From an uncultured Brevinematales bacterium (GTDB taxonomy: Bacteria; Spirochaetota; Brevinematia; Brevinematales; JAOACQ01): a stretch of DNA of 64,000 bases. The translations under genes and the position numbers were made by a program. Shown here piece by piece: positions 29,981 to 61,718 of this stretch (positions are counted from its first letter, which is position 1; every line of letters starts with the position of its first letter). The DNA is taken from assembly GCA_964533855.1 (NCBI GenBank), contig CAZHNM010000011.1, positions 6,293-70,292 of the forward strand, written 5' to 3'. The notes beneath the pieces were generated by a model. That model was not told the origin of the DNA. It ran no database searches and saw only the letters and a program-made list of their open reading frames with translations.

Positions 29981-29982
29981 TG

Positions 29983-37117: not shown

Positions 37118-37146
37118 TAAAAATCTTTGTTTAAAAGAGGCTGCAA

Positions 37147-38281: not shown

Positions 38282-38430
38282 ATAAAATTATTCTGGAAAG
38301 CTTGAAAAAAGTCAATTGAAATCCGAAATTGTAAATCCGGAATTGCTTCGGAGTGAGAGTTTCATCATCCCTTTTGACATTTTTACCTGCGGTTCTTAAA
38401 ATCAAGGCCATAGAAATCTACGGAGATATT

Positions 38431-39729: not shown

Positions 39730-39751
39730 AATTCAGACATAAGGATGTTTT

Positions 39752-42296: not shown

Positions 42297-42316
42297 ATGA
42301 CTTTCCTTTATAAGGT

Positions 42317-48268: not shown

Positions 48269-49096
48269 GTGGCTGAATACGGGCTTTTGATTTGCGGTGG
48301 AGGCGGTGATATATATGTTACAGCGGATACTGTCAACCAGATGTTAAACAACGGTAATGGTGCTGCAGGCTTGTACCCTGAAGGCGGTTCTGGTCCCGGA
48401 GGGGACGAAGAGGGGAATAGCTCGGATCCCTCATTTGACGAATACACACAGCAGCAAGCATTGCAAGAGAGAATTGATGAAAAGGCGGAGGCAGGAGCTG
48501 AAGAAGATATGAACCAAATGAGCTTACAATATGTCGAATATGTCTATATGCAAAGCCATGCGCCGGATACATTACAGATGTTGAATAATTTAAAGGATTG
48601 CGGTACTAATTATTCTTCTACTGTAGATGGTATAAACTTTATCTTTCCTAAAAAAGAATTTAGCCCACCAGGTTCGACATTAACTCCTAGTCAGCCGACT
48701 CCTATCGATCAGGCTATTGAAAATTTAAATCCGCAAGCTCTTGACCTTTTGATAGATATGGCGACTCAAAATAATATATCGGATATAGAGATATCTAGTA
48801 TGTGGAGAAATGATCCCAAGAAATATGGAACTGATGACCCGCACAATGACGGTTATAGTGTTGATGTTTTAGCGGTGTGGTCAACCGGTACTCGATACTC
48901 TTTCAATAATCTTGCAAGCGATAATACTTTTCAAAATGGAATATATAATTGGCTTCAACCAAATTCCAGTGAACTTTTAGATCCATGGCAAATGTATTAT
49001 GGAAGCGGTAATCCTGTACCTAATTATAATAGAACACAAGTTGAAAAAGATCACCAATCCCATTTTCATATAACAGGTTGGATTCTATTATGGTGA
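48269..49096 (+). CDS. Putative LAS/M15-type zinc peptidase (peptidoglycan hydrolase-like) with a Gly-zipper N-terminal extension; start unresolved
   Basis: HNDGYSVD fits the M15 metal motif HxxGxAxD (A->S), and KDHQSHFHITG fits the terminal (D/E)xxH / HxH motif. The in-frame upstream sequence (from about 48191) encodes GAIGGGLFGGAFGAFAGAEAAAG but has no in-frame ATG. The track start is a GTG. Confidence 0.45.
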   Translation: MAEYGLLICGGGGDIYVTADTVNQMLNNGNGAAGLYPEGGSGPGGDEEGNSSDPSFDEYTQQQALQERIDEKAEAGAEEDMNQMSLQYVEYVYMQSHAPDTLQMLNNLKDCGTNYSSTVDGINFIFPKKEFSPPGSTLTPSQPTPIDQAIENLNPQALDLLIDMATQNNISDIEISSMWRNDPKKYGTDDPHNDGYSVDVLAVWSTGTRYSFNNLASDNTFQNGIYNWLQPNSSELLDPWQMYYGSGNPVPNYNRTQVEKDHQSHFHITGWILLW

Positions 49097-49123
49097 CAAG
49101 TATAATTTAATTAGGAGTTTTCA

Positions 49124-49963
49124 ATGTATAGATTTTTTTCATGTTTGACTATCATTAATATGTTTTTGTTTAGTGAATTATTTGCAAAAAGCTACAATTT
49201 TACTCTAACCTTAGAAAAAGATGTGAGTGTTTATCCAGCACCTGAATTTAGCCCGTCAAATTTAATAAAAATGGAAATTGGGCATATTATTATGATTATC
49301 TCTAATTCATTTAAACAGGTAACATTAAGCAACAAGACCGGCAATTGGTTGTTCATTGATGCTGGTTATTATAATAGCGGTGAGAATACTACAATAAAGG
49401 GGTGGGTGCCGAGTTTTTATATAGCGGAAAAGAAGGATTTTAAAAAAGTAACTAAATTTGGAGAATATGAACTTGAAGGCTGGGTTGGAGATTACAGATT
49501 TGATTACAAATTTAACAAAGATGGAACAGTTATAGATACATTGTATAAAGAGGGGATTTATGAAGCGACTATAAAATGTAATCTTTATTGTAAAGATAAA
49601 GTTTTATTTGTTGAAGTTCAATATAAAGGTGATGATTCATTTCAAATATTCTATTTAAACGAAACGGGTGATTTATTCCTTCAAGAAATGCCCATCAAAG
49701 CCAAACGCATCGATGTTGTACCTTTATTGAATACTAATAATTTATTCTATTCGATAACAGGTGACAATGTAAATGTGCGCGCGGATGCCTCGGTAGATGG
49801 CAAAATATTAACCCTGTTATCGAAAGGTGCACGAGTGAAGTTGATCAAGAGGTCAGATATAGAACTCTATATCGGTGATAAGAAGGGTCATTGGGCATAT
49901 ATAGAAACCGGTGTGATCAAGGGATGGGTCTTTGATTATTATCTCAAGGAAGAAGGGAATTAA
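49124..49963 (+). CDS. Secreted protein with a C-terminal bacterial SH3 domain
   Basis: Signal-like N-terminus (FFSCLTIINMFLFSELFA). C-terminal SH3b pattern (VNVRADASVDGKILTLLSKGARVKLIKRS...GHWAYIETGVIKGWVFDYYL). AGGAG RBS. Very AT-rich. Confidence 0.6.
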   Translation: MYRFFSCLTIINMFLFSELFAKSYNFTLTLEKDVSVYPAPEFSPSNLIKMEIGHIIMIISNSFKQVTLSNKTGNWLFIDAGYYNSGENTTIKGWVPSFYIAEKKDFKKVTKFGEYELEGWVGDYRFDYKFNKDGTVIDTLYKEGIYEATIKCNLYCKDKVLFVEVQYKGDDSFQIFYLNETGDLFLQEMPIKAKRIDVVPLLNTNNLFYSITGDNVNVRADASVDGKILTLLSKGARVKLIKRSDIELYIGDKKGHWAYIETGVIKGWVFDYYLKEEGN

Positions 49964-50265
49964 TTTAGTACTAATGTTAGAGTAAATTATTCTTTGTTCT
50001 GGTAGAATTTAAATTAAGGTCAAAAAATGATAACTTCTTGTAATGAGTTTCACCGGGACAGGTAATAAGGACAGGTTTGAGTATTGCCCCGAATGCGGAA
50101 AGGAATATTCGGCGGAATCGGCGATTCCTCCGAGGGTTAAACTGATAAATCGAAGATCCGGATGGCAAAACTTAATAGAAAATAATTAATGATATTTTAA
50201 TAAAAATGCACAGTGAATAAATAATTTCGATTAAATTAGTTGAAATTTTAATACAGGAGTTAAAT

Positions 50266-50757
50266 ATGAAGAAAAACTTTTTGTTTGCCGGAGTCATTAT
50301 CGCAATGTTATCAGGTTTTGCCTCAACAGGTTTCGGCGCTGCATGGACCCAGTGGATGAATTTTAATGGATGTGGAGGTCAGGGTAATGAAACTAATCCG
50401 GTTCAGTATGATTATTATTCTATTAATTATGATGTTAATTTAAAAAGTGCGTATATCGAAGTCGATTATTATGGCGGCAACGCTTCATCAGATACAGGCG
50501 GCTCTCAATCACGGACTTATAGACTGTATGAGAATACAAATCCAAAGTTATTTTCATATGTAAATAATATCCTCATGCTATGTTTGAATTCTGTTAACCA
50601 GATCGCTGAACCTGCCGCAAATAATGATGCTGATAATGATTCAGGATATATGTATTTTAGTTTTTTTACTGAAACAACTAATTCCACAGGAGGAGACGGC
50701 GTTTCTTACCGGGCTATACTGGGTATCAAGACAGGATCATTGAGACAGAAAAGTTAA
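50266..50757 (+). CDS. Secreted hypothetical protein
   Basis: Signal peptide MKKNFLFAGVIIAMLSGFASTGFGAA. AGGAG RBS at 50254-58. No recognisable domain. Confidence 0.45.
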   Translation: MKKNFLFAGVIIAMLSGFASTGFGAAWTQWMNFNGCGGQGNETNPVQYDYYSINYDVNLKSAYIEVDYYGGNASSDTGGSQSRTYRLYENTNPKLFSYVNNILMLCLNSVNQIAEPAANNDADNDSGYMYFSFFTETTNSTGGDGVSYRAILGIKTGSLRQKS

Positions 50758-50882
50758 ATGATGTGGAAAAAGGTGCATATTGCCGGTCTGTCTGATTGCC
50801 CCGTTGCTTGTCAGATTATCATATTTGATTTAAAATAAATCCTGTTTATCAAATTATAGAAGAATTGCAGGATTTAAGAAAT

Positions 50883-51842
50883 ATGAATAAAACCTTTAAA
50901 CTCTCGGTTATTGTTCCCGTCTATAACGAGGAAAAAAATATACCCGTCCTGCTCGAACGGCTTAAAAAAGTCATAGATACGATAGGCTGCGGTTATGAAA
51001 TAATATTTTCGATGGACCCATGCAAAGACAGGACCGGGGAATTGATTCTTGAAGCCAGGAAAAAGGACAATAATATAAAACTGATCAGGATGTCCCGGCG
51101 TTTCGGACAGCCTGCCAGCACGATAGCCGGGATACATTACTGCACGGGCGACGCCTGCGTCGTGATCGACGCGGACCTGCAGGACCCTCCCGAACTGATA
51201 AAAGATATGGTGGAGAAGTGGAAAGAGGGGTACCATGTCGTATATGCCCAGAGGAAAAGCAGGAAGGGAGAGACCTTCATCAAGAGGATCGTCGCATTTC
51301 TCGGGTATAAAATAATAAACAGGATCTCCGATGTCAATATTCCCAGGAACACCGGGGATTTCCGCCTGATGAGCAGGGAAGTGATAGACAACCTGAAGCT
51401 TTTGAAGGAAAACGACGCCTTCTTGAGGGGCCTTGTCGGCTACATCGGCTTCAACCAGATAGGCATACAATATGAAAGGGATTCGAGGCTCAGCGGAAAG
51501 GGCAAGTATAACAGGTTTTTCGGCTCCCTTAAAATAGGCCTGAACGGAATCCTCAGCTTTTCGAAATATCCCCTGGACCTTATATCGATCTCAGGCGTCA
51601 TAATCGCATGCTTGAGCTTTCTGCTCGGGATTTTTTACATAGTTTTCAGCCTGATGCATATCAGAATACCATGGGGTAATCCCACCCTCGTCATTTTAAT
51701 ATCGTTTTACAGCGGAATCCAGCTTTTGAGCCTGGGAATCATCGGGCAGTATCTCGCGAGAATGTTCGACGAGGTCAAAGGCAGGCCCGTCTTTATAGTC
51801 CAGGAAGCCCATGGATTTGAAATCAAAAATATTAATAAGTAA
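50883..51842 (+). CDS. Family-2 glycosyltransferase, polyprenyl-phosphate sugar synthase type (GtrB/ArnC/DPM1-like)
   Basis: LSVIVPVYNEEKNI, VIDADLQDPPELI (DxD...QDPP) and two C-terminal TM helices, as in GtrB/ArnC. ATG 50883 is preferred over the TTG at 50865. Confidence 0.85.
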   Translation: MNKTFKLSVIVPVYNEEKNIPVLLERLKKVIDTIGCGYEIIFSMDPCKDRTGELILEARKKDNNIKLIRMSRRFGQPASTIAGIHYCTGDACVVIDADLQDPPELIKDMVEKWKEGYHVVYAQRKSRKGETFIKRIVAFLGYKIINRISDVNIPRNTGDFRLMSREVIDNLKLLKENDAFLRGLVGYIGFNQIGIQYERDSRLSGKGKYNRFFGSLKIGLNGILSFSKYPLDLISISGVIIACLSFLLGIFYIVFSLMHIRIPWGNPTLVILISFYSGIQLLSLGIIGQYLARMFDEVKGRPVFIVQEAHGFEIKNINK

Positions 51843-51854
51843 CCCGCGGGTATT

Positions 51855-52298
51855 ATGAGAAAGAGATTATGGACATATTTAAAGGAATTATACTTTAAAA
51901 TAGAAATTTTTAAAAAAATAAAATTTTTATCGATAGGCGGCACGACCTATTTATTGAACATGTCCGCCGTTTATTTAACGCATGAAATTTTAAGGCTTGA
52001 CAGCAACACGTCTTTTACGATTTCGTATGTTATCGGGCTGATCTATCATTTTACACTCAACAAGATTTTTGTTTTCCAGGAAAAGAAATTATCGCGGCTT
52101 AAATACCAGATAATACAATATTTAATACTGTCCCTTATAAATTACCTGATCCAGCTTGGCGTCCTTAACCTTTTCCTCCTGCTGAAAGTCAGTATTTATA
52201 TAGGCGTTTCCGCAGGAATTGCGCTGACATTGACATTGACATATTTTATAATGAACAGTCTGATCTTCAAAAAAAACAAGGAATTGGAGTTAAAATGA
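51855..52298 (+). CDS. GtrA-family small membrane protein (putative polyprenyl-P-sugar flippase)
   Basis: 147 aa with 4 TM helices. KFLSIGGTTYLLNMSAVYLTHEIL pattern. Located directly after the GtrB-like GT2. ATGA overlap with the next gene. Confidence 0.7.
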   Translation: MRKRLWTYLKELYFKIEIFKKIKFLSIGGTTYLLNMSAVYLTHEILRLDSNTSFTISYVIGLIYHFTLNKIFVFQEKKLSRLKYQIIQYLILSLINYLIQLGVLNLFLLLKVSIYIGVSAGIALTLTLTYFIMNSLIFKKNKELELK

Positions 52299-53248
52299 AA
52301 TATTTTGTCACCGGCGGAGCCGGGTTTATCGGAAGCAGCATCACGGACAGGCTTCTTGCAGACGGCCACTCTGTGAGCGTTTACGATAATTTTTCCACGG
52401 GTCTCCCCGAGTTTTTAGTAAAAGCGAAAGAGAGCGGCAGTTTCAGGCTCTTCGATGGCGACCTGTTAGACCCCGAAAAGCTGTCCGGGGCGATGGAGGG
52501 TTGCGATTTTGTAATACATTTTGCGGCAAACGCGGACGTAAGGTTCGGGACCGAGCATCCGGGGAAAGACCTTAACCAGAACATCATAGCGACTTTTAAC
52601 GTCCTGGAGGCCATGAGGAAGAACGGCATCGGGAAAATCGCGTTTTCCTCCACGGGGTCCATATACGGCGAATCGAAGACGATTCCGACCCCTGAGAACG
52701 CACCTTTTCCTGTCCAGACATCCCTTTACGGAGCTTCCAAATTGTCGGGAGAGGGCCTGATACAGGCTTACTGCGAGGGTTTCGGATATAAAGCCTGGAT
52801 ATTCAGGTTCGTATCAATCCTCGGGGAAAGGTACACTCATGGCCATATTTTCGATTTTTACAGGATGCTGCTGAAAAATCCAGCCGAACTGAAAGTCCTC
52901 GGGAACGGCAGGCAGAGGAAATCATATTTATACATCCAGGACTGCATCGACGCGATCTTTTTCGCGCTTGAAAAAGCTGATGAAAAGGTTAATATTTTCA
53001 ATCTTGGGACCAACGAATACTGCGAGGTCAACAATTCGATCGGCTGGATATCTGAAAATCTCGGCCTTTCCCCCGAGCTCAAATATACGGGAGAAGACCG
53101 TGGCTGGATCGGGGATAATCCTTTTATATTCCTCGATTGCTCTAAAATCAACAAACTCGGCTGGACCCCGAAATTAACCATAAAGGAAGCCGTTATTAAG
53201 ACCCTCGAATATTTGAAGGAAAATAAATGGGTCCTGGAAAGGAGATAA
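52295..53248 (+). CDS. NAD-dependent epimerase/dehydratase (extended SDR)
   Basis: VTGGAGFIGSSI Rossmann motif, catalytic YGASKLSGE (YxxxK). 317 aa. Confidence 0.85.
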   Translation: MKYFVTGGAGFIGSSITDRLLADGHSVSVYDNFSTGLPEFLVKAKESGSFRLFDGDLLDPEKLSGAMEGCDFVIHFAANADVRFGTEHPGKDLNQNIIATFNVLEAMRKNGIGKIAFSSTGSIYGESKTIPTPENAPFPVQTSLYGASKLSGEGLIQAYCEGFGYKAWIFRFVSILGERYTHGHIFDFYRMLLKNPAELKVLGNGRQRKSYLYIQDCIDAIFFALEKADEKVNIFNLGTNEYCEVNNSIGWISENLGLSPELKYTGEDRGWIGDNPFIFLDCSKINKLGWTPKLTIKEAVIKTLEYLKENKWVLERR

Positions 53249-53252
53249 GTTC

Positions 53253-54086
53253 TTGGAATCTGTAATTGTTTTCGGCGGAAGCCTGGGAATAGGAAGGGCC
53301 GCAGCGAAGGATTTTTTAGAGAAGGGCTTCAAGGTTTCGGCTTTCGCAAGGAATATGCCGGGCCTCGAATCGCTGCGGGATGAAGCCCGTGAAAGCGGGA
53401 TGTTTATTAATATCATACGGGGCGACGTCGGAAATATGGATGAAGTCGCGGATGCCTTCGATTCCCATAAAAAAGCTTACGGCGAGTATCCCTCTTTCAC
53501 GATAAACGCCGCCGGCATCCAGGGGGCTCTCGGCCCCGCCTGGACATTGTCCCAGGAGGATTTCGAAGCTGTAATAAAAGTCAATCTCACGGGCTGCTTC
53601 AATGTTTCGAAGACAGCAGTTTCAGCCTTGATAGAGGAAAACCGGCCGGGTTCGATCATACATTTTTCGGGCGGAGGCTCATGCAACGCCCGGCCAAATT
53701 TTTCATCCTACGGAGTTTCAAAAACAGGGGTGCTCCGGCTTGTCGAAACTATCGCGGAAGAACTGAAGCTTGCCGGGTATGAAGATATCATTATCAACGC
53801 GGTTGCGCCCGGCGCCGTAAAAACAAGGATGACGGAAGAAGTGATCATTGCGGGCGAAAAGGCCGGCGGCAGCGCCCTCCTGGAGGCGGAGAAAACATCG
53901 GCCGGCGGCGGCACGGACCTGAAGGATGTCATAAAGCTTGTCGGCTTTTTATGCGATAGAAATCAGAACATGGGTATCAGCGGCCGGCTGATCCATTTCA
54001 GGGATGAATACGGGAAATTCGCCCTGGTGCACAGGGGCGCCGCTTACAGGCAGGCCGGGATGCTGCGGAGGATAAAATTAATTTAA
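53253..54086 (+). CDS. Classical SDR family oxidoreductase
   Basis: VFGGSLGIGRAAA (TGxxxGxG-like), YGVSKTGV (YxxxK), NAVAPGAV. TTG start. Confidence 0.8.
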   Translation: MESVIVFGGSLGIGRAAAKDFLEKGFKVSAFARNMPGLESLRDEARESGMFINIIRGDVGNMDEVADAFDSHKKAYGEYPSFTINAAGIQGALGPAWTLSQEDFEAVIKVNLTGCFNVSKTAVSALIEENRPGSIIHFSGGGSCNARPNFSSYGVSKTGVLRLVETIAEELKLAGYEDIIINAVAPGAVKTRMTEEVIIAGEKAGGSALLEAEKTSAGGGTDLKDVIKLVGFLCDRNQNMGISGRLIHFRDEYGKFALVHRGAAYRQAGMLRRIKLI

Positions 54087-54102
54087 ATTACGGGGTTGAC
54101 TG

Positions 54103-55089
54103 ATGAATATAGCTATAATCGGCTGCGGACTGATCGGGGAAAAAAGGGCGCGGGCGCTGGGAGCCATGGGCGGCGGCCATAAGCTCGTGATGGTTTCTGA
54201 CAGGGAAAGGGGAAGGGCTGAAAAAGTCGCCAGGATAAATAAAGAGAACGCCGCTATAGCTTCTTCATGGGAAGAAGCGGCAGCCTGCCCTGACGCGGAC
54301 CTGGTCATAGTTTCGACGTCCAACGATTCCCTGACTGCTGTCGGCATGTACGCGCTCAGGCATAACAAGCATGTCCTGATCGAGAAGCCGGGAGCCAGGA
54401 ATTCTTCCGAGATTGAACCTTTTTACATGGAAAGCCTCGAATCGGACAGGAAGGTGAAAGTCGGCTTCAACCTCCGTTATCATCCTGCAATGCTTAAGGC
54501 CAAGGAGATCGCCTCCTCGCCGGAATTCGGAAGCCTTATGTTCATCCGGGGGCGTTACGGTCATGGCGGCAGGATAGGCTATGACAAAGAATGGCGCGCA
54601 AATCCTGAAATATCGGGGGGCGGGGAGCTCATCGACCAGGGCGTCCACCTGATAGATCTATCCCGCCATTTTATGGGCGATTTTGAAAAGGTCGAGGGCT
54701 TTGCCGAGACATATTTCTGGGATATGAAAGTGGATGATAACGGGTTTATATCCCTGAGAAATCCCGGGAACCGGGCCGCATGGCTTCAGGTCAGCTGCAC
54801 GGAATGGAAGAATATGTTCTGCTTTGAAATATACGGGAAATACGGCAAATTGCAGATCGACGGGCTTGGAGGAAGCTACGGGCTTGAAAGGCTCTCCTAC
54901 TATAAAATGCTTCCCGAGATGGGGCCGCCGCAGACAACGATATGGGAGTATCCCGGCGGCGATCTTTCATGGGACCTCGAATTCAAAGATTTTATTTTTG
55001 CGATAGAGAATGACAGGCCTGTAAACGGAAGCCTTAATGACGCATTCGAGGCTTTGAAAATCGTCGATAAAATCTATGGGAGAATTTAA
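54103..55089 (+). CDS. Gfo/Idh/MocA family oxidoreductase
   Basis: N-terminal IAIIGCGLIGEKRA Rossmann motif and the EKP motif (HVLIEKPGA). 328 aa. Confidence 0.85.
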   Translation: MNIAIIGCGLIGEKRARALGAMGGGHKLVMVSDRERGRAEKVARINKENAAIASSWEEAAACPDADLVIVSTSNDSLTAVGMYALRHNKHVLIEKPGARNSSEIEPFYMESLESDRKVKVGFNLRYHPAMLKAKEIASSPEFGSLMFIRGRYGHGGRIGYDKEWRANPEISGGGELIDQGVHLIDLSRHFMGDFEKVEGFAETYFWDMKVDDNGFISLRNPGNRAAWLQVSCTEWKNMFCFEIYGKYGKLQIDGLGGSYGLERLSYYKMLPEMGPPQTTIWEYPGGDLSWDLEFKDFIFAIENDRPVNGSLNDAFEALKIVDKIYGRI

Positions 55090-56073
55090 ATGATAATAAC
55101 GAGAAGCCCTCTGCGTGTTACCCTGGGCGGCGGGGGGACAGACCTGGCCTCTTACTACAGGGATTTCGGCGGATTCGTGATCGCGGCGGCAATAGATAAA
55201 TACATCTATATCACCCTCCATAAGACTTTCCAGCCGGGATATATAATCAAGTATTCCCTGATGGAAAAAGTTATGGAGATATCCGAAATACAGCATCCCA
55301 TAATCAGGGAGTCCCTGAAGATGCTCGAATTCCAGGATAATTACCTGGAACTCACAAGCATGGCGGATATACCCTCGGGAACGGGGCTGGGCTCCTCGAG
55401 CTCTTTCACGACGGCCCTTCTCAAGGCTCTCCATATGTACAAGAGGGATTTTATACATCCGATGGAGCTCGCGCAGGAGGCCTGCGATATTGAAATCAAA
55501 AGGCTTGGTGAGCCTATCGGCAAACAGGACCAGTTCATTTCCGCGTACGGGGGGCTTACCTGCTTCGAGTTCAACGGGGACGGCAGCGTAAATTCCTACC
55601 CCCTGAGGATTGGCAAAGAGACATTATACGACCTCGAGGACAACCTCCTCCTGTTTTTTACGGGCTTTACGAGGAGCGCGTCTTCGATACTCAAGGACCA
55701 GAACGATAAAAGCAAGGATAATAACAAGGAAATGATAGAAAACCTTCATTTTGTAAAAGAATTAGGCCTGAAAAGCAAGGAAGTCCTCGAGAAGGGCGAT
55801 CTGCAAAAATTCGGCGAACTGCTCAACGTCCATTGGGAGCATAAGAAGAAGAGATCCGGGTCCATCTCGAATCCGAAGATAAACGAATGGTACGACTTAG
55901 CGATGAAAAACGGGGCCGTGGGCGGCAAGCTTATCGGAGCCGGCGGCGGCGGGTTTTTCATGTTCTACGCCCAGGATAAACTCAAGCTCAGGCACACGCT
56001 GATGAAGGCGGGCCTGGAGGAGATACGGTTCAGGTTCGACTTCGAGGGGACAAAGGTAGTAACGGAGTCATGA
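55090..56073 (+). CDS. hddA: GHMP kinase, D-glycero-alpha-D-manno-heptose 7-phosphate kinase type
   Basis: N-terminal MIITRSPLRVTLGGGGTDLASYY (HddA-like) and the GHMP motif PSGTGLGSSSSF. Flanked by gmhA/gmhB/hddC-type genes. Confidence 0.75.
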   Translation: MIITRSPLRVTLGGGGTDLASYYRDFGGFVIAAAIDKYIYITLHKTFQPGYIIKYSLMEKVMEISEIQHPIIRESLKMLEFQDNYLELTSMADIPSGTGLGSSSSFTTALLKALHMYKRDFIHPMELAQEACDIEIKRLGEPIGKQDQFISAYGGLTCFEFNGDGSVNSYPLRIGKETLYDLEDNLLLFFTGFTRSASSILKDQNDKSKDNNKEMIENLHFVKELGLKSKEVLEKGDLQKFGELLNVHWEHKKKRSGSISNPKINEWYDLAMKNGAVGGKLIGAGGGGFFMFYAQDKLKLRHTLMKAGLEEIRFRFDFEGTKVVTES

Positions 56074-56762
56074 TTACCGATATCGCGCTTTTAAGCGGAG
56101 GACTGGCAACCCGGCTTTACCCTGTAACCCGGGATATTCCCAAAGCGATGATAGATATAAACGGCAGGCCTTTTATCCATCACCAGCTGGAATTATTGAA
56201 GAGGAACGGGCTGGAAAAAGTAGTATTGTGCGTTGGATACCTCGGGGATATGATACGCGATTATGCCGGTGACGGGAAAAGTTTCGGGCTCGACATCAGG
56301 TATTCCTATGACGGGGACCGGCTTCTGGGAACGGGAGGCGCGATTAAAAAAGCCTTGAAAGAATTGTCGGGAGAGTTTTTTGTCATGTACGGGGATTCTT
56401 ATCTGCCGGTCGATTTCAGGGCGGTTTCAGAAAGCTTCTCGAAAGACGGGAAAAAGGCCCTGATGACTGTTATCAGGAATAACAACGAATGGGATAAAAG
56501 CAATGTAATTTTTGATAAAGGCGTCATTAAAGAGTATAATAAAAAGATCAGTCTTCCCGAAATGGAATATATAGATTACGGCCTGGGCATAATCAGGAAG
56601 TCCTGTTTCGACGGCCTTAAGGAAAACGAGGCCTGCGACCTGGCGGACATATACCGGGGCCTTGTATCGGAAAATGAGCTTGCGGGTTTCGAAGTAAATG
56701 AAAGGTTTTATGAGATCGGATCCTTTAAAGGAATCGAGGAAACGAAAGAATTTTTAAAATAA
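56070..56762 (+). CDS. hddC: Sugar-phosphate nucleotidyltransferase, D-glycero-alpha-D-manno-heptose 1-phosphate guanylyltransferase type
   Basis: LSGGLATRLYPVTRDIPKAMIDINGRPF (G-x-G-t-R-l motif). 230 aa. ATGA overlap with the kinase. Confidence 0.75.
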   Translation: MITDIALLSGGLATRLYPVTRDIPKAMIDINGRPFIHHQLELLKRNGLEKVVLCVGYLGDMIRDYAGDGKSFGLDIRYSYDGDRLLGTGGAIKKALKELSGEFFVMYGDSYLPVDFRAVSESFSKDGKKALMTVIRNNNEWDKSNVIFDKGVIKEYNKKISLPEMEYIDYGLGIIRKSCFDGLKENEACDLADIYRGLVSENELAGFEVNERFYEIGSFKGIEETKEFLK

Positions 56763-57379
56763 TGGCGGTGAATATGGATATCAGGACATACATGGAAGCG
56801 TACTTCGAAGGCGTAATTAAAATCGCGCAGACCATCGATAAGAACGCGGTGGAAAAAGCCGTGAAAGTCCTCCTCGGGATCAAGAACGGCGGGGGGAGGC
56901 TTTTTATCCTGGGGGTCGGCGGAAGCGCGGGCAATGCCGGGCATGCCGTTAACGATTTCAGGAAACTTGTCGGCCTTGAATCCTATGCTCCCACGGACAA
57001 TGTTTCCGAACTTACGGCCCGCACTAACGATGAAGGGTGGGATACCGTTTTCGAGAAGTGGCTCGAGGGAAGCAGGCTTAAACCGGCCGACGGGATACTT
57101 GTCATTTCGGTGGGCGGGGGAAACGAGGAAAAAAATATAAGCGTCAATATAGTCAAAGCCCTGAAATACGCAAAGGAAACCGGCTCGAAAATCATCGGCC
57201 TTGTCGGCCGTGACGGCGGTTTTACCGCGAAGGTGGCCGACGCGGCAGTGATCATCCCGGTTGTGCGCGATGACATGATCACACCCCTGACAGAGGCTTA
57301 CCATGCCGTTATATGGCACATGTTCGTTTCCCATCCGGAATTAAAAACTTCGAACGCTAAATGGGAGTCGACGAGATAA
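56762..57379 (+). CDS. gmhA: SIS-domain sedoheptulose 7-phosphate isomerase-like protein
   Basis: SIS motif LFILGVGGSAGNAGHAVNDF, about 200 aa. TAATG overlaps at both ends, with hddC and gmhB. Confidence 0.75.
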   Translation: MAVNMDIRTYMEAYFEGVIKIAQTIDKNAVEKAVKVLLGIKNGGGRLFILGVGGSAGNAGHAVNDFRKLVGLESYAPTDNVSELTARTNDEGWDTVFEKWLEGSRLKPADGILVISVGGGNEEKNISVNIVKALKYAKETGSKIIGLVGRDGGFTAKVADAAVIIPVVRDDMITPLTEAYHAVIWHMFVSHPELKTSNAKWESTR

Positions 57380-57960
57380 TGAATAAGGCTATCTTTCTCG
57401 ACAGGGACGGGGTTATAAACAGGCCCGTATTCTCGGGCATCAGAAGCGAATTCGAACCTCCCCACAGGGTTGAGGATTTAAGCCTCTATCCATGGACGCT
57501 TGAGAGTTTGAAAATCGCTCAGGATAACGGTTTTTTGCTATTTATAGTTTCGAACCAGCCCGATTATGCGAAGGGCAAGTGCAGCCTCGAAGATTTGATG
57601 GAGGTTCACAGCAGACTGGATGAAATATTCAGAGCGAACAATATAATATTCAGCGAATATTACTACTGCTATCATCATCCCAACGGTATCGTTGCCGGAT
57701 ATTCCCTGGCCTGCGAGTGCAGGAAGCCCGGGACGTATTTTCTGAAAAAAGCGGAAAAAGAGTATTCGATAGATATGAGCCGCTCATGGATGATCGGGGA
57801 CAGGGAAACGGATATCGCCTGCGGGAAAAGGGGCGGACTCAGGACTATCCTTGTCAAAAGCGAGGAGCAGGCTGCCGGGCAGACCCGCTCCGAAGAAGCC
57901 GATTTTAAAGCGGATAACCTCCTCGACAGCGTGAAACTTATAATAAATTACAAATTTTAA
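57379..57960 (+). CDS. gmhB: HAD-family D,D-heptose 1,7-bisphosphate phosphatase
   Basis: IFLDRDGVIN (DxDGT/V motif), Zn-finger insertion CYHHP...CECRKP, and GDRETDI. ATG 57379 overlaps the gmhA stop by 1 nt. Confidence 0.85.
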   Translation: MNKAIFLDRDGVINRPVFSGIRSEFEPPHRVEDLSLYPWTLESLKIAQDNGFLLFIVSNQPDYAKGKCSLEDLMEVHSRLDEIFRANNIIFSEYYYCYHHPNGIVAGYSLACECRKPGTYFLKKAEKEYSIDMSRSWMIGDRETDIACGKRGGLRTILVKSEEQAAGQTRSEEADFKADNLLDSVKLIINYKF

Positions 57961-57969
57961 AAATAAAGG

Positions 57970-58698
57970 ATGGAAAATATGTTTAAGACTTCCGACTTGA
58001 AGATCAAAATCTTTGCTGACGGCGCGAAACTTGAAGACATGCTTAAAGCCTATAAAGAAGGATGGGTAAGCGGTTTTACGACAAATCCGACCCTGATGAA
58101 GCAGGCCGGGGTAACCGATTACAAGGCCTTCGCCAGGGAGGTGCTCTCGAAGATCACCGATCTCCCGGTCTCTTTCGAGGTATTTTCCGACGATTTTGAA
58201 GATATGGAAATCCAGGCCAGGAAGATAGCCGGTTGGGGAAAAAATGTCAATGTAAAGATCCCCGTAACAAATACCAGGGGCGAGTCTTCGATCCCCCTCA
58301 TTAAAAAATTGAGCGGGAGCGGGATATCGCTTAACATAACGGCAATAATGACCATAGAACAGGTTGAAGAAGTCGCGAAGGCGATAAATCCCGGAATAAA
58401 AAATATCATTTCGATTTTCGCCGGAAGGATAGCGGACACCGGCCGCGACCCTGTCCCTATGATGAAGCGGGCCGTCGAAATCTGCAGGGGCAATACCAAT
58501 GCGCATATCCTCTGGGCAAGCCCCAGGGAGCTTTTGAATATAATACAGGCGGAAGAAGCCGGCTGCCATATCATCACGGTTGCGCCGGATATTTTGAAAA
58601 AGCTGCCGCTGATCGGCAAAGATCTCGGCGAATATTCGCTGGACACGGTGAAAATGTTTTACAGCGACGGGAAAAGCCAGGGATTCAGGATCGAGTGA
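57970..58698 (+). CDS. Transaldolase/fructose-6-phosphate aldolase family protein
   Basis: GFTTNPTLM motif and the Schiff-base Lys context NVNVKIPVT. 242 aa. Confidence 0.8.
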   Translation: MENMFKTSDLKIKIFADGAKLEDMLKAYKEGWVSGFTTNPTLMKQAGVTDYKAFAREVLSKITDLPVSFEVFSDDFEDMEIQARKIAGWGKNVNVKIPVTNTRGESSIPLIKKLSGSGISLNITAIMTIEQVEEVAKAINPGIKNIISIFAGRIADTGRDPVPMMKRAVEICRGNTNAHILWASPRELLNIIQAEEAGCHIITVAPDILKKLPLIGKDLGEYSLDTVKMFYSDGKSQGFRIE

Positions 58699-58804
58699 AC
58701 AGAATAGAGAACGGATATACCGGTTACTGCTATTTGATTTGAGAAAATTCTTCCCTCGTTTTATAATATCTATCTGTATTTTTTATGCCTTAGAGGAGTG
58801 CAAT

Positions 58805-59632
58805 ATGAAAACGATTGACGCATCGAACCTGCATTATAAAGAGCTGAACACGATGATCTTCGATTCGATCAAAGGCGGTGAAAAGCATATCGTTGTCAAT
58901 AATTGCCTGGGCCACAGGTATATAGGCGACGGCCTGTGCGGTGAAGACATCAAGATAGATATTAACGGAACTGCCGGCAACGACCTTGCGGCTTTCATGA
59001 ACGGGCCGACGATACATGTCCATGGCAACGCCCAGGACGGAATAGGCAATACGATGAACGCCGGGAAGGTGTTCGTCGACGGCGATGCGGGCGACGTCCT
59101 CTGCTACGGCATGAGGGGCGGCGAGGTCTATGTCAGGGGCAATGTAGGCTACCGCGTAGGAATACACATGAAAGAATACATGGATTTCATCCCCAAGGCC
59201 GTCATCGGGGGATGCGCAGGGGACTTTTTCGGGGAATATATGGCAGGGGGTTTCCTCGTCATTCTAGGCCTCGATGCGGGAGACAGGCCAATACTCGGGA
59301 AAAATATAGCCACCGGAATGCATGGCGGAAGGGTATATGTCCGCGGCACTGTGGATAAAACAAGAACGGATAAGGCGACCAGGCCGTCCGATATAGACGA
59401 TGAAGACATGAAGATCCTCAAGGCCCTTGTCGGAGAGTTCTGCTCGGCTTTCGGGCTGGACAGCGCTAAAATCCTCAAGGATAAATTCACGAAGCTTACA
59501 CCGTCGAGCAAGAGGCCTTACGGCAAGCATTACACGCCGTTCTGGCATACTATTACCGACAGGAAGATGGTTGTGCCGGGTTCGTACGAAGCCAACGGCT
59601 ATCCCGCCGTCAGGAACATAAGGGAAAGATAA
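58805..59632 (+). CDS. GXGXG-motif protein (glutamate synthase alpha-subunit C-terminal domain / GltB3-like)
   Basis: Repeated beta-helix G-rich turns (INGTAGNDLAAFMNGPTIHVHGNAQDGIGNTMNAGKVFVDGDAGD...GGEVYVRGNVGYRVG). GAGGAG RBS precedes ATG 58805. The track start is further upstream. Confidence 0.8.
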   Translation: MKTIDASNLHYKELNTMIFDSIKGGEKHIVVNNCLGHRYIGDGLCGEDIKIDINGTAGNDLAAFMNGPTIHVHGNAQDGIGNTMNAGKVFVDGDAGDVLCYGMRGGEVYVRGNVGYRVGIHMKEYMDFIPKAVIGGCAGDFFGEYMAGGFLVILGLDAGDRPILGKNIATGMHGGRVYVRGTVDKTRTDKATRPSDIDDEDMKILKALVGEFCSAFGLDSAKILKDKFTKLTPSSKRPYGKHYTPFWHTITDRKMVVPGSYEANGYPAVRNIRER

Positions 59633-59645
59633 ATTTCGGGAGGAA

Positions 59646-61163
59646 ATGATGCTCTATCAGCCGAATGTTACCAATTATTACGATTTCAGGGTTGTAAGAG
59701 ATCAGGATAGATGTATTAAATGCCAGGGCTGCGTGACTCAGTGTTCATACGGCTCAAACTTCTGGGACGGCGACAGGCAGAAGATCGACTCCATCCACAG
59801 CAAATGCGTAGGCTGCCACCGCTGCGAGGCTTTCTGCCCTACGGACGCCATCTCTATACAGCGCAACCCGTCCCAGTTCAGGGAAAACGGGTACTGGTCA
59901 AAGGGAGACATTAAAAACATTTACCTGAATGCAGAATCGGGAGCCATTGTAACGACAGGAATGGGCAACGATCTCAAGACGCAGCCCGTATATTTCGACA
60001 GGATACTCTTCGACGCCTGCCAGGTTACGAACCCGTCGATCGACCCCCTCAGGGAGCCGATGGAGCTGATAACATACATAGGCAACAGGGGAAGGGAGCT
60101 TTCCGGCACAAAAAAGAAAAATTCAGGCAAGAGGACCATAAGGCTCGATGTTCCGATAATGTTCGGCCCTATGTCATACGGCTCAATAAACCTCAACGTC
60201 CAGAAGGCCTTAGCCGCCACCGCGGAAGGGCATGGCACGCTCTGGAGCACGGGAGAAGGCGGGCTTCATAAGGATCTTTACAAGTACGGTCCTAACACGA
60301 TAGTCCAGGTGGCGTCCGGAAGGTTCGGCGTCCATGAAGAATACCTCAAGGCCGGCGCGATGATCGAGATCAAGATCGGACAGGGCGCCAAGCCCGGCAT
60401 CGGCGGGCATCTCCCCGGCGAAAAAGTCGTGGCGGATGTTTCAAGGACAAGGATGATCCCGCTAGGCAGCGACGCGATTTCGCCCGCCCCCCACCATGAT
60501 ATATATTCTATCGAGGACCTCAGGCAGCTTATATACGCCCTCAAAGAGGCGACAAGGTATGAAAAGCCTGTCGGAGTCAAGGTCTCTGCAGTGCATAATA
60601 TAGCCGCGATCGCTTCGGGGATCGCGAGAGCGGGAGCGGATATAATAGTGATCGACGGGTACCGCGGCGGCACAGGGGCTACCCCCCTTATCGTCCGCGA
60701 CCATACAGGCATACCAATAGAACTTGCGATAGCCGTTGTCGACGAGAGATTACGGGCGGAAGGGATCAGGGAAAACGTCGGATTGGTCGCCGCGGGCGGA
60801 ATCAGGAGCGCGGCGGATGTGCTGAAATCTATCGCTCTTGGCGCCGACGCCGTTTACATATCCACAGCCGCCCTGATATCCGTGGGCTGCACTCTCTGCC
60901 AGCAGTGCCATACAGGCCGCTGCGCATGGGGCATCACGACCAACGACCCGTATCTGGCGAAAAGGCAGAACCCGGAAATTGCGGCGGAATTAGTTTCCAA
61001 TCTTTTAGGCGCCTGGGAGATTGAAATGAGGGAAGTACTTGGAAGCATGGGCCTTAACGCCATTGAAAGTCTCAGGGGCAACAGGGAAAGGCTCCGCGCA
61101 GTGGGTATGACTGAAAGCGAAATGCAGGTCCTGGGCCTCAAGCAAGCCGGCCTGGGAATGTAG
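59646..61163 (+). CDS. Glutamate synthase FMN-binding domain protein (GltB2-like) with N-terminal 4Fe-4S ferredoxin motifs
   Basis: CIKCQGCVTQC and CVGCHRCEAFCP at the N-terminus. GltS_FMN signatures KIGQGAKPGIGGHLPG, ISPAPHHDIYSIEDL, VIDGYRGGTGATP and the 3Fe-4S-region-like CTLCQQCHTGRC. Confidence 0.85.
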   Translation: MMLYQPNVTNYYDFRVVRDQDRCIKCQGCVTQCSYGSNFWDGDRQKIDSIHSKCVGCHRCEAFCPTDAISIQRNPSQFRENGYWSKGDIKNIYLNAESGAIVTTGMGNDLKTQPVYFDRILFDACQVTNPSIDPLREPMELITYIGNRGRELSGTKKKNSGKRTIRLDVPIMFGPMSYGSINLNVQKALAATAEGHGTLWSTGEGGLHKDLYKYGPNTIVQVASGRFGVHEEYLKAGAMIEIKIGQGAKPGIGGHLPGEKVVADVSRTRMIPLGSDAISPAPHHDIYSIEDLRQLIYALKEATRYEKPVGVKVSAVHNIAAIASGIARAGADIIVIDGYRGGTGATPLIVRDHTGIPIELAIAVVDERLRAEGIRENVGLVAAGGIRSAADVLKSIALGADAVYISTAALISVGCTLCQQCHTGRCAWGITTNDPYLAKRQNPEIAAELVSNLLGAWEIEMREVLGSMGLNAIESLRGNRERLRAVGMTESEMQVLGLKQAGLGM

Positions 61164-61171
61164 GAGGAAAT

Positions 61172-61702
61172 GTGAAAAGAGTTTATCCTGTCGAGGATTT
61201 CTGCGTAGCTTGCCACCTCTGCGAAGTGGCATGCATTGTAGAGCATTCGAAATCAAAGAATTTATTTTACGCCTTTTCTGAAAAACCGAAGGTGAATTCT
61301 AAAATAGAAGTTGAAATGGAAGGCCCCCTTTCATTTTCCGCGAACTGCAGGATCTGCGAGCATGCGGAATGCGTCGAAGCATGCCCCGTCGCGGCAATGT
61401 GGCGCGACGACACAACCGGGCTTGTCAGGGTGGAAGATAAGCGCTGCATAGGCTGCTGGATGTGCATCATGGCATGCCCCCAGGGTTCGATCACGAACCG
61501 CCAGGACAGGGATGAAGGCCTCCGGGTCGCCGACAAGTGCGATCTCTGCGCCGGAAGGGACTCGGGCCCCGCCTGCGTCGAAGCATGCCCGAACAACGCC
61601 CTGCTCTATGAAGACAGGGATGAGTCGGCTAAAGACCTGCGCACAATGAAGGGATCGATGCATGTCTTTATAGAAAGCGACGATTCCGCGAACCAGGATT
61701 AA
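61172..61702 (+). CDS. 4Fe-4S dicluster (polyferredoxin-like) protein
   Basis: Four Cys clusters (CVACHLCEVAC; CRICEHAECVEACP; CIGCWMCIMACP; CDLCAGRDSGPACVEACP). AGGAGG RBS precedes GTG 61172. Confidence 0.8.
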   Translation: MKRVYPVEDFCVACHLCEVACIVEHSKSKNLFYAFSEKPKVNSKIEVEMEGPLSFSANCRICEHAECVEACPVAAMWRDDTTGLVRVEDKRCIGCWMCIMACPQGSITNRQDRDEGLRVADKCDLCAGRDSGPACVEACPNNALLYEDRDESAKDLRTMKGSMHVFIESDDSANQD

Positions 61703-61718
61703 CGGAGGAAAGACAGCA

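Follow-up and report, generated by a model that had tools for sequence, protein, structure and literature searches.

What sugar does an operon make in which the genes of a nucleotide-heptose pathway directly follow those for a polyprenyl-phosphate glycosyltransferase and a GtrA-family membrane protein, and where is that sugar used? The question is raised by a stretch of 64,000 nucleotides from an uncultured Brevinematales bacterium of the phylum Spirochaetota (assembly GCA_964533855.1, contig CAZHNM010000011.1, positions 6,293 to 70,292), which we call the window. [quoted passage not shown] On balance, we lean towards the view that the cassette at 50865–58698 is self-contained and that its product is a stereochemically remodelled heptose, carried on polyprenyl phosphate, that serves glycosylation outside the cytoplasm.

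The cassette consists of ten co-directional plus-strand genes, from the GT2 to the transaldolase (Table 1). The eight genes named in the earlier note are present on this strand where it had placed them, and the tight coupling that it described is seen at the junctions. The GtrA/extended short-chain dehydrogenase/reductase (SDR) and kinase/nucleotidyltransferase (NTase) junctions are ATGA overlaps, and the NTase/SIS isomerase junction is a TAATG overlap. The gene for the Gfo/Idh/MocA oxidoreductase (Gfo) directly adjoins that for the kinase. Between GtrA and the transaldolase, junctions range from a 19-nt overlap (SIS/HAD phosphatase) to a gap of 16 nt, which is the largest. The Pfam assignments of the operon proteins all exceeded the gathering thresholds. 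Pattern scans, whose counts were near the shuffled expectation, gave a promoter-like site at 50808–50836, shortly 5′ of the GT2 gene (weak evidence), and no convincing terminator between the GT2 and transaldolase genes (not decisive). This arrangement is far beyond chance, and the same gene set occurs in dozens of unrelated genomes.

Three side observations concern the operon itself. The start of the classical SDR is uncertain (it was called from a TTG at 53253), as is that of the HAD phosphatase, which has an alternative ATG at Met7, just ahead of its DRDG motif. In 2-kb bins, the G+C content is ∼0.40 at 50001–52000 (GT2 and most of GtrA) as against 0.48–0.51 in the epimerase-to-kinase bins; this step inside the operon could be due to the composition of membrane proteins, or else the cassette could be of mosaic origin.

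Next, we consider the distribution of the cassette. The Gfo protein was used to scan one genome per GTDB species as well as a plasmid collection, the latter giving a Rhizobium locus. We observed the following. Gfo orthologues of 51–67% identity define 26 loci in many phyla. The kinase gene lies directly 3′ of Gfo in 21 of the 26; it is absent in three (L012, L019 and L025), and in two more the contig ends first (L026 and L030). No other gene is linked to the kinase as tightly as Gfo. Beyond these loci, other searches gave L063, L064, L067, L068 and one further locus. A phage collection searched with the Gfo protein contained no homologue. The block composed of GT2 (with or without GtrA), epimerase, classical SDR, Gfo, kinase, NTase, SIS isomerase, HAD phosphatase and transaldolase recurs, in shuffled order, in at least nine phyla. 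The block is found together with a GT2 orthologue, or in two loci with a longer protein that has a GT2 domain (see below), in Spirochaetota, Elusimicrobia, Planctomycetales, Lachnospiraceae, Coxiellaceae/Legionellales, Rhizobium, Kiritimatiellae, Oligoflexia/Halobacteriovoraceae and Omnitrophota. The cassette-adjacent GT2 homologues are 51–72% identical, the epimerase orthologues 61–72%, and the transaldolase orthologues 52–66% (Elusimicrobia, Lachnospiraceae, Legionellales, Coxiellaceae, Acidobacteria, Rhizobium, Lawsonia and Omnitrophota); a classical SDR partner, at 29–49% identity, is found in most cassettes. The transaldolase and the three oxidoreductases are conserved with the core across the loci. 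They are pathway partners, as the earlier note had supposed, and not accidental neighbours.

The order of the genes differs between lineages. It is GT2-epimerase-Gfo-kinase-NTase/HAD-SDR-SIS-transaldolase in Lachnospiraceae, GtrA-epimerase-GT2-SDR-Gfo...kinase-NTase-SIS-HAD-transaldolase in Legionellales, SIS-HAD-transaldolase-GT2-epimerase-...-SDR-Gfo in Leptospiraceae, and SIS-HAD-epimerase-UGDH-SDR-Gfo-kinase-NTase-GT2 in Oligoflexia, UGDH being a UDP-glucose-dehydrogenase-like gene. A complete cassette in the window order, with a UGDH-like gene inserted, lies on the chromid pRCCGE525c of Rhizobium jaguaris CCGE525 (L068, 965521–990474). GT2 itself may stand beside the epimerase, the NTase (L042) or the transaldolase (L064). 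In L016, it forms part of a 552-aa methyltransferase-GT2 fusion (Pfam), and L007 has a similar protein of 549 aa, in which GT2 was matched by BLAST only. We also looked from the opposite side, starting from four GT2 homologues (64–74% identity) chosen solely for lying on long contigs; three of the four adjoin the cassette (on a 213-kb contig, in an Omnitrophota metagenome-assembled genome (MAG) and in a Halobacteriovoraceae MAG). Some cassettes (L009, L063, L015, L016 and L018) contain variable tailoring genes. The products are B12-binding radical SAM enzymes, whose genes stand between those for GT2 and the epimerase, as well as one to three S-adenosylmethionine-dependent methyltransferases and, in Legionellales, a fatty-acid-desaturase/GntB-like hydroxylase.

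Around the Rhizobium cassette, whose PLSDB record is unannotated here, we noted a divergent gene for a 664-aa protein with nine transmembrane (TM) helices upstream and transposase-sized open reading frames (ORFs; 516 and 245 aa) downstream.

The GT2 protein (Pfam Glycos_transf_2, 110 bits) is closest to Synechocystis GtrB (5EKP, E=6.8e-83, residues 7–321), followed by ArnC (E∼1e-40) and DPMS (9e-19). Its DADLQD (102–107) and RKSRK (130–134) segments match the DxD/Q98/D99 and lipid-phosphate R122/R125 motifs of GtrB, and two hydrophobic segments (235–253 and 274–292) close the protein. Among NCBIfam models PgfS is the best match, the score being below the equivalog cut-offs of both PgfS and ArnC. 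It is highly improbable, in our judgement, that the cassette is a conventional sugar-nucleotide operon for O-antigen or capsule in which GT2 is an ordinary glycan-chain glycosyltransferase instead of a polyprenyl-phosphate monosaccharide synthase. The very large size of the GT2 family, and the frequent location of cassette loci in polysaccharide regions with Wzy, Wzx, WecG and Bac_transf genes, would suit such an assignment. However, the protein resembles GtrB at this level over the same length, including the two C-terminal helices and the basic lipid-phosphate motif, it is followed by GtrA, and its homologues are labelled polyisoprenyl-phosphate glycosyltransferases by annotators of the Joint Genome Institute (JGI). 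The structural papers on GtrB give no uracil-contact residues against which the donor nucleotide could be compared; the gene context argues that the donor is a cassette-made sugar other than UDP-glucose. The GtrA protein (Pfam GtrA_DPMS_TM, PF04138, 54.5 bits; cut-off 26.1), of which homologues occur in cassettes L016, L018, L024 and L068 and at the P0009 locus, is the proposed flippase for the lipid-linked sugar.

We then turned to the sugar-nucleotide core. For the kinase, NTase, SIS isomerase and HAD phosphatase alike, heptose-pathway enzymes were the closest solved relatives. To this extent the HddA/HddC/GmhA/GmhB-type core of the earlier note stands. All four proteins missed the respective NCBIfam equivalog cut-offs, a point that weakens the heptose assignment.

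The kinase was matched best by 3K85 of Bacteroides thetaiotaomicron (E=2e-51), WcbL of Burkholderia pseudomallei (4USK, 1.9e-50) and 4N3O of Campylobacter jejuni (4e-42), the next-best relative in the PDB being a fucokinase at E 1e-19 only. HddA (NF049969) was its best NCBIfam model (190.8 bits, cut-off 600), and the fucokinase model scored 97 bits. The motifs GGGGTD (13–18), PLRV, GLGSSSS and KQDQ are present. Residues R9, D18, S102–105 and Q146-D147 correspond to R13, D22, S118–120, Q162 and D163 of WcbL, the mapping being made through an alignment with 3K85 and the WcbL paper, with numbering matched by motifs and not by direct alignment to WcbL. In the WcbL study these residues were essential, including the heptokinase-specific Gln (Q162) beside the catalytic Asp (D163). 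The protein is most likely an HddA/WcbL-type heptokinase, predicted to phosphorylate heptose-7-phosphate at O1.

The HAD phosphatase passed the NCBIfam models for HAD-IIIA (87.9 bits, cut-off 44.6) and for the histidinol-phosphatase-type domain (111.8, cut-off 84.15); with the GmhB equivalog (NF006506) it reached 106.3 bits against a cut-off of 178. It matched Escherichia coli GmhB (3L8E) at E=1.1e-18. The GmhB motifs quoted in the earlier note are indeed there (DRDG 14–17, CYHHP 103–107 and CECRKP 118–123), together with SNQ at 64–66. In the alignment with 3L8E, the DxD (D14-R-D16), the zinc loop (C103/H105/C118/C120) and the substrate residues R121-K122 of GmhB are all kept. The transaldolase assignment was borne out by equivalog TIGR02134 (367.3 bits against 281.95, residues 8–241) and by Pfam TAL_FSA (158.5 bits). 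The normal product of a transaldolase is sedoheptulose-7-phosphate.

For the NTase (Pfam NTP_transferase, motif GGLATRL at 10–16), the nucleotide is less clear. The MurU model scored slightly higher (115.5 bits, cut-off 250) than HddC (NF049965; 101.6, cut-off 300), which speaks against a straightforward HddC. In the PDB, Yersinia HddC (6JQ8) was matched at E=1.9e-21 over the N-terminal residues 4–122 only, and MurU (4Y7T) at 3.5e-19 over the full length. MurU is a uridylyltransferase, and by these scores the enzyme may be either HddC-like or MurU-like. The GDP of the earlier note thus rests on the GDP-preferring subgroup of the adjacent epimerase (see below) and the weak resemblance to HddC; from these, the enzyme probably uses GTP.

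The SIS isomerase departs furthest from its named relatives. It belongs to Pfam SIS_2, scored 62.5 bits with gmhA (TIGR00441; cut-off 209) and matched the GmhA structures in the PDB at E=4e-12 to 1e-8, the weak matches being confined to the GmhA and DiaA families. We aligned it with six cassette orthologues from several phyla and two GmhA structures. Where GmhA has the tetrad His-Glu-Gln-His, the window protein has H61/D65/E178/H186, that is, Asp for the catalytic Glu and Glu for Gln; its phosphate loop reads SVGGGNEEKN, with a six-residue insertion, in place of the S-T-S-G loop. Both changes argue against a canonical GmhA, and they recur (the loop as SVGGGNxEKN) in all six orthologues. The site is probably still that of a metal-dependent isomerase, though without the GmhA signature. 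Among 1.84 billion cluster representatives at 50% identity, 366 clusters matched at E≤1e-30, far more strongly than canonical GmhA. By these sequence comparisons, the protein represents a distinct GmhA-like isomerase subfamily. With such an active site, the aldoheptose formed could differ from the manno isomer, so that the configuration given by the earlier note, D-glycero-alpha-D-manno, is not assured.

One alternative arises here, namely that the sugar is lipid-linked yet is not a D-glycero-D-manno-type heptose. The divergent SIS isomerase and the transaldolase might handle another ketose phosphate, for example a different heptulose stereoisomer or an octulose formed when a pentose phosphate receives a dihydroxyacetone unit, and the kinase, phosphatase and NTase would then activate that sugar. 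Isomerases of this family that give non-manno heptoses are known from antibiotic pathways. The departure from GmhA at two of four catalytic or metal positions and in the phosphate-binding loop is as this alternative would have it, as are the scores of all four core enzymes well below their equivalog cut-offs and the presence of a pathway-specific transaldolase, unusual for heptose clusters (none was described, by title and abstract, in the literature found). Nevertheless, the heptokinase-specific Gln-Asp pair is present in the kinase, whose close relatives are all heptokinases, the phosphatase keeps the zinc loop and the Arg-Lys residues of GmhB, and the transaldolase passes a bona fide transaldolase equivalog. 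We regard the alternative as quite improbable; given the kinase and phosphatase signatures, a non-heptose product is the less likely outcome.

Gene fusions bear on the integrity of the heptose pathway. Many clusters of the SIS subfamily consist of fusion proteins. Among metagenomic SIS homologues (P0159–P0205), Pfam identified SIS-HAD, HAD-SIS and NTase-SIS fusions, the NTase being joined to a SIS domain in P0165 and P0184. A 451-aa NTase-HAD fusion occurs in five Lachnospiraceae loci (L013, L020, L022, L023 and L029). As independent evidence, the fusions point to one pathway in which isomerase, phosphatase and NTase all work.

Among the three oxidoreductases, the extended SDR is not of a generic kind. 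Its closest structures are 3EHE of Archaeoglobus fulgidus (E=2e-88, 300 bits) and PhGal4E_1 of Pyrococcus horikoshii (8RDG, E=1.4e-72, 248 bits), and 3ICP/3AW9 were matched as well. It keeps Tyr145/Lys149, His182 and the guanine-stacking Trp (W271). Its AANADV segment (77–82) has Ala80 where PhGal4E_1, 3EHE and 3ICP have Pro80. The GMD/RmlB type of 4,6-dehydratase carries Asp-Glu, or Glu, directly after the catalytic Ser/Thr; the window protein, which reads S118-S-T-G-S-I-Y-G, has no such acid pair (T-D-E). It scored far below the cut-offs of the dTDP-glucose dehydratase (133.7 bits, cut-off 365) and Gmd (46, cut-off 415) models. Therefore, of the earlier designation 'epimerase/dehydratase' only the epimerase holds, and the extended SDR is taken as a 4-epimerase. 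The missing motif also makes the 6-deoxy-heptose route, which had been considered, unlikely. The relatives of 3EHE and PhGal4E_1 form a GDP-sugar-preferring, highly promiscuous subgroup of Gal4E enzymes, in which Pro80 of PhGal4E_1 contacts the keto-intermediate (PMC12171764). Placement in this subgroup is the best available argument for a GDP-linked sugar.

The Gfo protein has both Pfam GFO_IDH_MocA domains, N- and C-terminal. Its best matches were weak and mostly enzymes that oxidise a ring hydroxyl of a sugar, namely the C3-oxidising levoglucosan dehydrogenase (89 bits), DgpA and 6JW6 (E=2.4e-17), and inositol dehydrogenases. The motifs are GCGLIG (7–12), EKP (94–96) and DQGVHLID (178–185), with Asp33 at the end of the second strand, as is typical of NAD+ users. 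The classical SDR (Pfam adh_short, 127.9 bits), with generic FabG-like or glucose-dehydrogenase-like relatives only, carries GGSLGIG (8–14), NAAG (85–88), Y153xxxK157 and, at the place equivalent to Asp33 of Gfo, Arg33 in FARN, typical of NADPH users. We infer from these cofactor signatures that the two form an oxidise-then-reduce pair inverting one further stereocentre. By analogy with DprE1/DprE2, the pair could act on the lipid-linked sugar in place of the nucleotide sugar; DprE2 is a classical SDR.

Several observations weigh against a single pathway that runs from the heptose genes to GT2. One GT2-GtrA pair, 74% identical, has no cassette within the flank seen. In Acidobacteria (L027, L028 and L031) the block from Gfo to the transaldolase occurs without GT2, epimerase and SDR. 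Plasmid 3 of Lawsonia intracellularis PHE/MN1-00 (L067, 4594–29520) has a heptose block with the SDR and without GT2, GtrA and epimerase, which are replaced by an LPG_synthase_TM ('flippase-like') protein and a UGDH-like nucleotide-sugar dehydrogenase. A Tepidisphaerales MAG (L012) has the epimerase-SDR-Gfo trio without the kinase. A divergent UGDH-like dehydrogenase, which would also fit a hexuronate route, stands beside the epimerase in about a third of cassettes (among them L015, L016, L042, L063 and L068); these genes pass only a generic model of nucleoside diphosphate (NDP)-sugar dehydrogenases, so their substrate cannot be assigned. As the heptose block is found without GT2 in some genomes, the coupling of the two is frequent and not obligatory. 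The polyprenyl-phosphate link of the earlier note holds with this restriction.

These exceptions could be explained by two independent modules that share one surface-glycan locus. In one, a polyprenyl-phosphate hexose or hexuronate, such as galactose (Und-P-Gal) or galacturonate (Und-P-GalA) on undecaprenyl phosphate (Und-P), would be made by GT2, GtrA and the 4-epimerase, together with UGDH and SDR where these are present. In the other, Gfo, kinase, NTase, SIS, HAD and transaldolase would supply an NDP-heptose to Leloir glycosyltransferases of the cytoplasm whose genes lie elsewhere. All the loci just listed are as such a division would have them, and so is PgfS as the best NCBIfam match of GT2. 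The PgfS system includes an epimerase; PgfS/PgfE of Streptococcus mutans and mycobacterial PpgS/Rv3632/GalE are the precedent for a polyprenyl-phosphate hexose. On the other hand, GT2 and the heptose genes are together in at least nine phylum-level lineages, with GT2 beside the transaldolase, the NTase or the epimerase, and without a shared function, this co-occurrence in varied positions would be difficult to account for. Of the four independently chosen GT2 homologues, three are linked to the cassette. The epimerase falls in a GDP-preferring subgroup, in contrast to the UDP-sugar donors of the known GtrB-type hexose systems. GtrA overlaps the epimerase translationally, the operon is unbroken, and no Leloir transferase is encoded within the 64 kb. 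We therefore consider the two-module explanation unlikely, though far from negligible. A simpler variant, in which the extended SDR is a GalE serving GT2 alone in the manner of PgfS/PgfE, was weakened by the GDP-sugar subgroup and is kept within this explanation.

Lawsonia intracellularis is a pathogen of pigs, in which the heptose block is thus plasmid-borne. The block there is flanked by genes for two paralogous hypothetical proteins of ∼1090 aa, and the Lawsonia genes bear generic names from the Prokaryotic Genome Annotation Pipeline (PGAP).

A lipid-linked heptose, as we prefer to read the product, would call for a transferase of the GT-C type on the far side of the membrane. The window encodes no GT1, GT4 or GT9 Leloir transferase; its proteins of glycosyltransferase families are two polyprenyl-phosphate-type GT2s and five or six GT-C-like membrane proteins only. 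All three kinds of component of a three-component system are encoded together: the operon has GT2 and GtrA, the gene for a GT-C protein lies 2.7 kb upstream of it, and within 12 kb there are another four to five GT-C-like proteins. The upstream protein, of 564 aa, has no Pfam match itself, while distant homologues carry PF10131 or PF13231. Its AlphaFold2 model (pLDDT 88.7, pTM 0.91) has a GT-C fold: in the Foldseek search of the PDB, all of the top 31 matches were GT-C enzymes (probability 0.93–1.0, mostly 1.0; TMq 0.25–0.45), including PglB, STT3, AglB, EmbA/B, AftA, AftD, ArnT, ALG3, DPY19 and Pmt4. Within its family, H37 in the first loop is nearly invariant (consensus HD at 37–38), and E155 and FPWRL (361–365) are invariant. 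It is the nearest candidate for a periplasmic transferase using the lipid-linked sugar, and a 22%-identical protein, likewise of 564 aa, neighbours GT2 in L009. However, its homologues elsewhere (43% and 28% identity) do not adjoin a cassette, which counts against this protein as the dedicated partner.

We rejected the idea of a fixed GT-C partner on the strength of these unlinked homologues and of BLAST comparisons, in which the large membrane neighbours fell into several unrelated families. An hhalign comparison of the 564-aa family profile with the large membrane neighbours in L013, L018, L027 and L064 gave no match (probability <5%). At most other loci where the flanks extend far enough, the cassette is bordered by large multi-TM proteins that are unrelated to one another. 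They resemble the acceptor-specific transferases of three-component systems and are candidate GT-C enzymes.

The window has a second lipid-linked-sugar module (38353–40858, plus strand), composed of a 458-aa PMT_2-like, LA_3751/3752-like GT-C protein followed by a 368-aa GT2-GtrA fusion. The best NCBIfam matches of the fusion were AglJ, ArnC, PgfS and PpgS, all below cut-off. Since it is merely 24% identical to the cassette GT2, the association with the cassette is specific to the cassette type of GT2. Between the two GT2 genes lie four further genes for multi-TM proteins on the minus strand (40851–46351), one with a weak PMT_2 match. The 481-aa and 514-aa proteins are paralogues (54% identical); a search of 5.8 billion proteins gave only seven homologues of their family, apparently all in MAGs of related spirochaetes. 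The model of the 485-aa form was poor (pLDDT 54.7); nonetheless, 20 of its 21 top Foldseek matches were GT-C enzymes, ArnT (5F15) being the best (E=5.8e-5). Tentatively, the two paralogues may be ArnT-like GT-C enzymes and alternative users of either lipid-linked donor.

Table 1. Genes of the cassette and of nearby membrane proteins, with coordinates in the window
Feature	Coordinates	Strand	Assignment
GT2	50865–51842	+	GtrB-type polyprenyl-phosphate glycosyltransferase; GT-A domain and two C-terminal TM helices
GtrA	51855–52298	+	GtrA-family small membrane protein
Extended SDR	52295–53248	+	NDP-sugar 4-epimerase, by similarity to the GDP-sugar 4-epimerase subgroup
Classical SDR	53253–54086	+	Predicted NADPH-type ketoreductase; TTG start
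Gfo/Idh/MocA oxidoreductase	54103–55089	+	Predicted NAD+-type sugar secondary-alcohol dehydrogenase
GHMP kinase	55090–56073	+	Probable HddA/WcbL-type heptose-7-phosphate 1-kinase
Nucleotidyltransferase	56070–56762	+	Sugar-1-phosphate NTase, HddC-like or MurU-like
SIS isomerase	56762–57379	+	GmhA-like ketose/aldose-phosphate isomerase, distinct subfamily
HAD-IIIA phosphatase	57361–57960	+	GmhB-like; candidate heptose 1,7-bisphosphate 7-phosphatase
Transaldolase	57970–58698	+	Staphylococcus/Coxiella-type short transaldolase
564-aa, ∼10-TM protein	46473–48167	+	GT-C fold (AlphaFold2 model and Foldseek); 2.7 kb upstream of the cassette
481-aa multi-TM protein	40851–42296	−	6–8 hydrophobic segments; no Pfam/NCBIfam match
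461-aa multi-TM protein	42317–43702	−	6–8 hydrophobic segments; no Pfam/NCBIfam match
514-aa multi-TM protein (called as 485 aa)	43699–45243	−	6–8 hydrophobic segments; no Pfam/NCBIfam match

The cross-phylum synteny, the domain fusions, the GT-C fold and the absence of Leloir transferases from the window are best explained by a polyprenyl-phosphate heptose donor. In the pathway that we propose, the transaldolase would raise the supply of sedoheptulose-7-phosphate, which the SIS isomerase would convert to an aldoheptose-7-phosphate. The kinase would form the alpha-1,7-bisphosphate, the HAD phosphatase would remove the 7-phosphate, and the NTase would yield an NDP-heptose, probably GDP-heptose. 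The 4-epimerase would invert C4, and oxidation by Gfo followed by reduction by the classical SDR would invert a second centre. The inverting GT2 would move the finished heptose from the nucleotide onto undecaprenyl phosphate, GtrA would flip the lipid-linked sugar across the membrane, and a GT-C enzyme, either the 564-aa protein or a neighbouring multi-TM protein, would transfer it to an envelope acceptor. The substrates and products, the nucleotide, the carbons epimerised and the GT-C partner named here are all predictions from the sequence, its genomic context and the models.

We compared this scheme with known systems. With the GDP-heptose pathway it has in common the four enzyme families and the presumed order of reactions from sedoheptulose-7-phosphate, and the catalytic residues of the kinase and the zinc loop of GmhB are kept. 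It differs in that the cassette proteins are below the equivalog level, the isomerase (H/D/E/H, loop insertion) forms a separate subfamily, the transaldolase is in the operon, and the product is apparently passed to a polyprenyl-phosphate GT2 and not to cytoplasmic Leloir transferases. The GDP-heptose toolkit of C. jejuni, which serves a cytoplasmic use, comprises a C4-dehydrogenase, a 4,6-dehydratase, cupin C3/C5-epimerases, C4-reductases and mutases (PMC10680097). It resembles the cassette in the NAD(P)-dependent stereochemical remodelling of a nucleotide-linked heptose by genes beside the core pathway (PMC10680097); the cassette, in contrast, has a GalE-like GDP-sugar 4-epimerase, a Gfo and a classical SDR, with neither a cupin epimerase nor a 4,6-dehydratase. 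The LPS genes cbu0674–0678 of Coxiella burnetii were tried as a known counterpart and rejected, CBU0678 being an HldE-type bifunctional kinase/adenylyltransferase and not a GHMP kinase.

On the lipid-linked side, the GtrA/GtrB/GtrC systems for O-antigen glucosylation in Shigella and Salmonella phages have the same GtrB-type GT2 (the GtrB motifs are kept), GtrA and GT-C neighbours. There, however, GtrB takes the housekeeping UDP-glucose, whereas the cassette GT2 travels with dedicated sugar-nucleotide genes in a ten-gene set; its donor sugar is probably made to order, and a heptose. The ArnC/ArnT system for aminoarabinose follows the same logic, in which a dedicated nucleotide sugar passes through a GT2 Und-P-sugar synthase and a flippase to a GT-C enzyme, and ArnC is the second-best structural relative of the cassette GT2; the class of sugar and its biosynthetic enzymes differ. 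The RgtE/RgtA-D pathway for galacturonate is another with this dedicated-sugar, Und-P and GT-C logic. The pentofuranose systems, namely mycobacterial decaprenylphosphoryl arabinose (DPA) with DprE1/DprE2 and the three-component systems of Citrobacter (PMC11127046), share a lipid-linked monosaccharide for GT-C enzymes and an epimerisation by an oxidase and a reductase. They start, unlike the cassette, from phosphoribosyl pyrophosphate via a UbiA-type transferase, and not from a nucleotide sugar via GT2, and their oxidase is FAD-dependent. The GDP-sugar 4-epimerase subgroup (PhGal4E_1 8RDG, A. fulgidus 3EHE and Pyrobaculum calidifontis 3AW9; PMC12171764) shares the catalytic residues and the guanine-stacking Trp with the cassette enzyme. 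Its characterised members are archaeal and have no known physiological pathway, whereas the cassette enzyme is bacterial and has Ala in place of Pro80.

As far as we could find in the literature, bacterial heptoses are added by cytoplasmic Leloir transferases only, from ADP- or GDP-heptose. The sugars with known lipid-phosphate-linked donors are glucose, N-acetylglucosamine/N-acetylgalactosamine, mannose, aminoarabinose, galacturonate and pentofuranoses. The three-component systems in the literature act with hexoses, amino sugars and, in recent work, pentofuranoses (PMC11127046). A phrase search of the literature gave no undecaprenyl- or polyprenyl-phosphate heptose, and, judged by title and abstract, no paper found described a cluster like the present cassette. 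The parts of the cassette are of known kinds (the GDP-heptose pathway, GtrABC-type and Arn-type donors), and their combination is new as far as we could find.

The remaining features of the window are side observations. Three small proteins are encoded between the 564-aa gene and GT2 (48269–50757, plus strand): one of 275 aa with a Gly/Pro-rich N-terminus, one of 279 aa with a C-terminal SH3_3 domain, and one of 163 aa with a signal-peptide-like start. These could be glycosylation targets. An SH3_3 protein similar to the 279-aa one is encoded at 2558–3298. A functionally unrelated, glutamate-synthase-like set (58739–63008, plus strand) starts 40 nt 3′ of the transaldolase and comprises a GXGXG subunit, a GltB-type FMN/Fe-S subunit, a 4Fe-4S protein and a pyridine-nucleotide-disulfide oxidoreductase; this arrangement behind the transaldolase is kept in a related MAG contig (L002). 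The region 26615–37875 encodes a UvrD-like helicase of 1121 aa together with a type IV coupling protein of the TraG/TrwB type (445 aa), followed by four ORFs without a Pfam match, a LuxR-type regulator and a PilZ protein. The G+C content falls to 0.37 at 34–38 kb. This region may be the remnant of a conjugative element. Rfam and tRNA scans gave no match in the window.

The further-reaching reading, to which we would commit ourselves only hesitantly, would see here the first donor system for polyprenyl-phosphate heptose, borne by at least nine phyla on a cassette that moves horizontally. The cassette would furnish its own sedoheptulose-7-phosphate, build a doubly epimerised NDP-heptose by means of the GmhA-like isomerase subfamily, not described before, and the Gfo/SDR redox pair, the latter perhaps acting on the lipid-linked sugar as DprE1/DprE2 do, and serve heptosylation by GT-C enzymes outside the cytoplasm. 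Its carriers would include Rhizobium, Lawsonia, Legionellales/Coxiellaceae, Leptospiraceae and gut Lachnospiraceae, and the heptosylated targets would be envelope glycans, lipids or proteins. This is, in our estimate, a little short of an even prospect.

If true, a new class of sugar would be added to those used in extracytoplasmic glycosylation, and the GDP-sugar 4-epimerase subgroup, so far studied only as a promiscuous biocatalyst, would gain a physiological role. In that case a GmhA-like isomerase subfamily, with 366 clusters at 50% identity, would be newly defined as well. Carriers of the cassette include Rhizobium jaguaris, Lawsonia intracellularis and Lachnospiraceae of the mouse gut, organisms that are cultured, tractable or of medical relevance, and it is found in MAGs of Legionellales and Coxiellaceae too. 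In such organisms, its product could matter for serotype variation, for evasion of phages or of immunity, and for the innate sensing of heptose metabolites.

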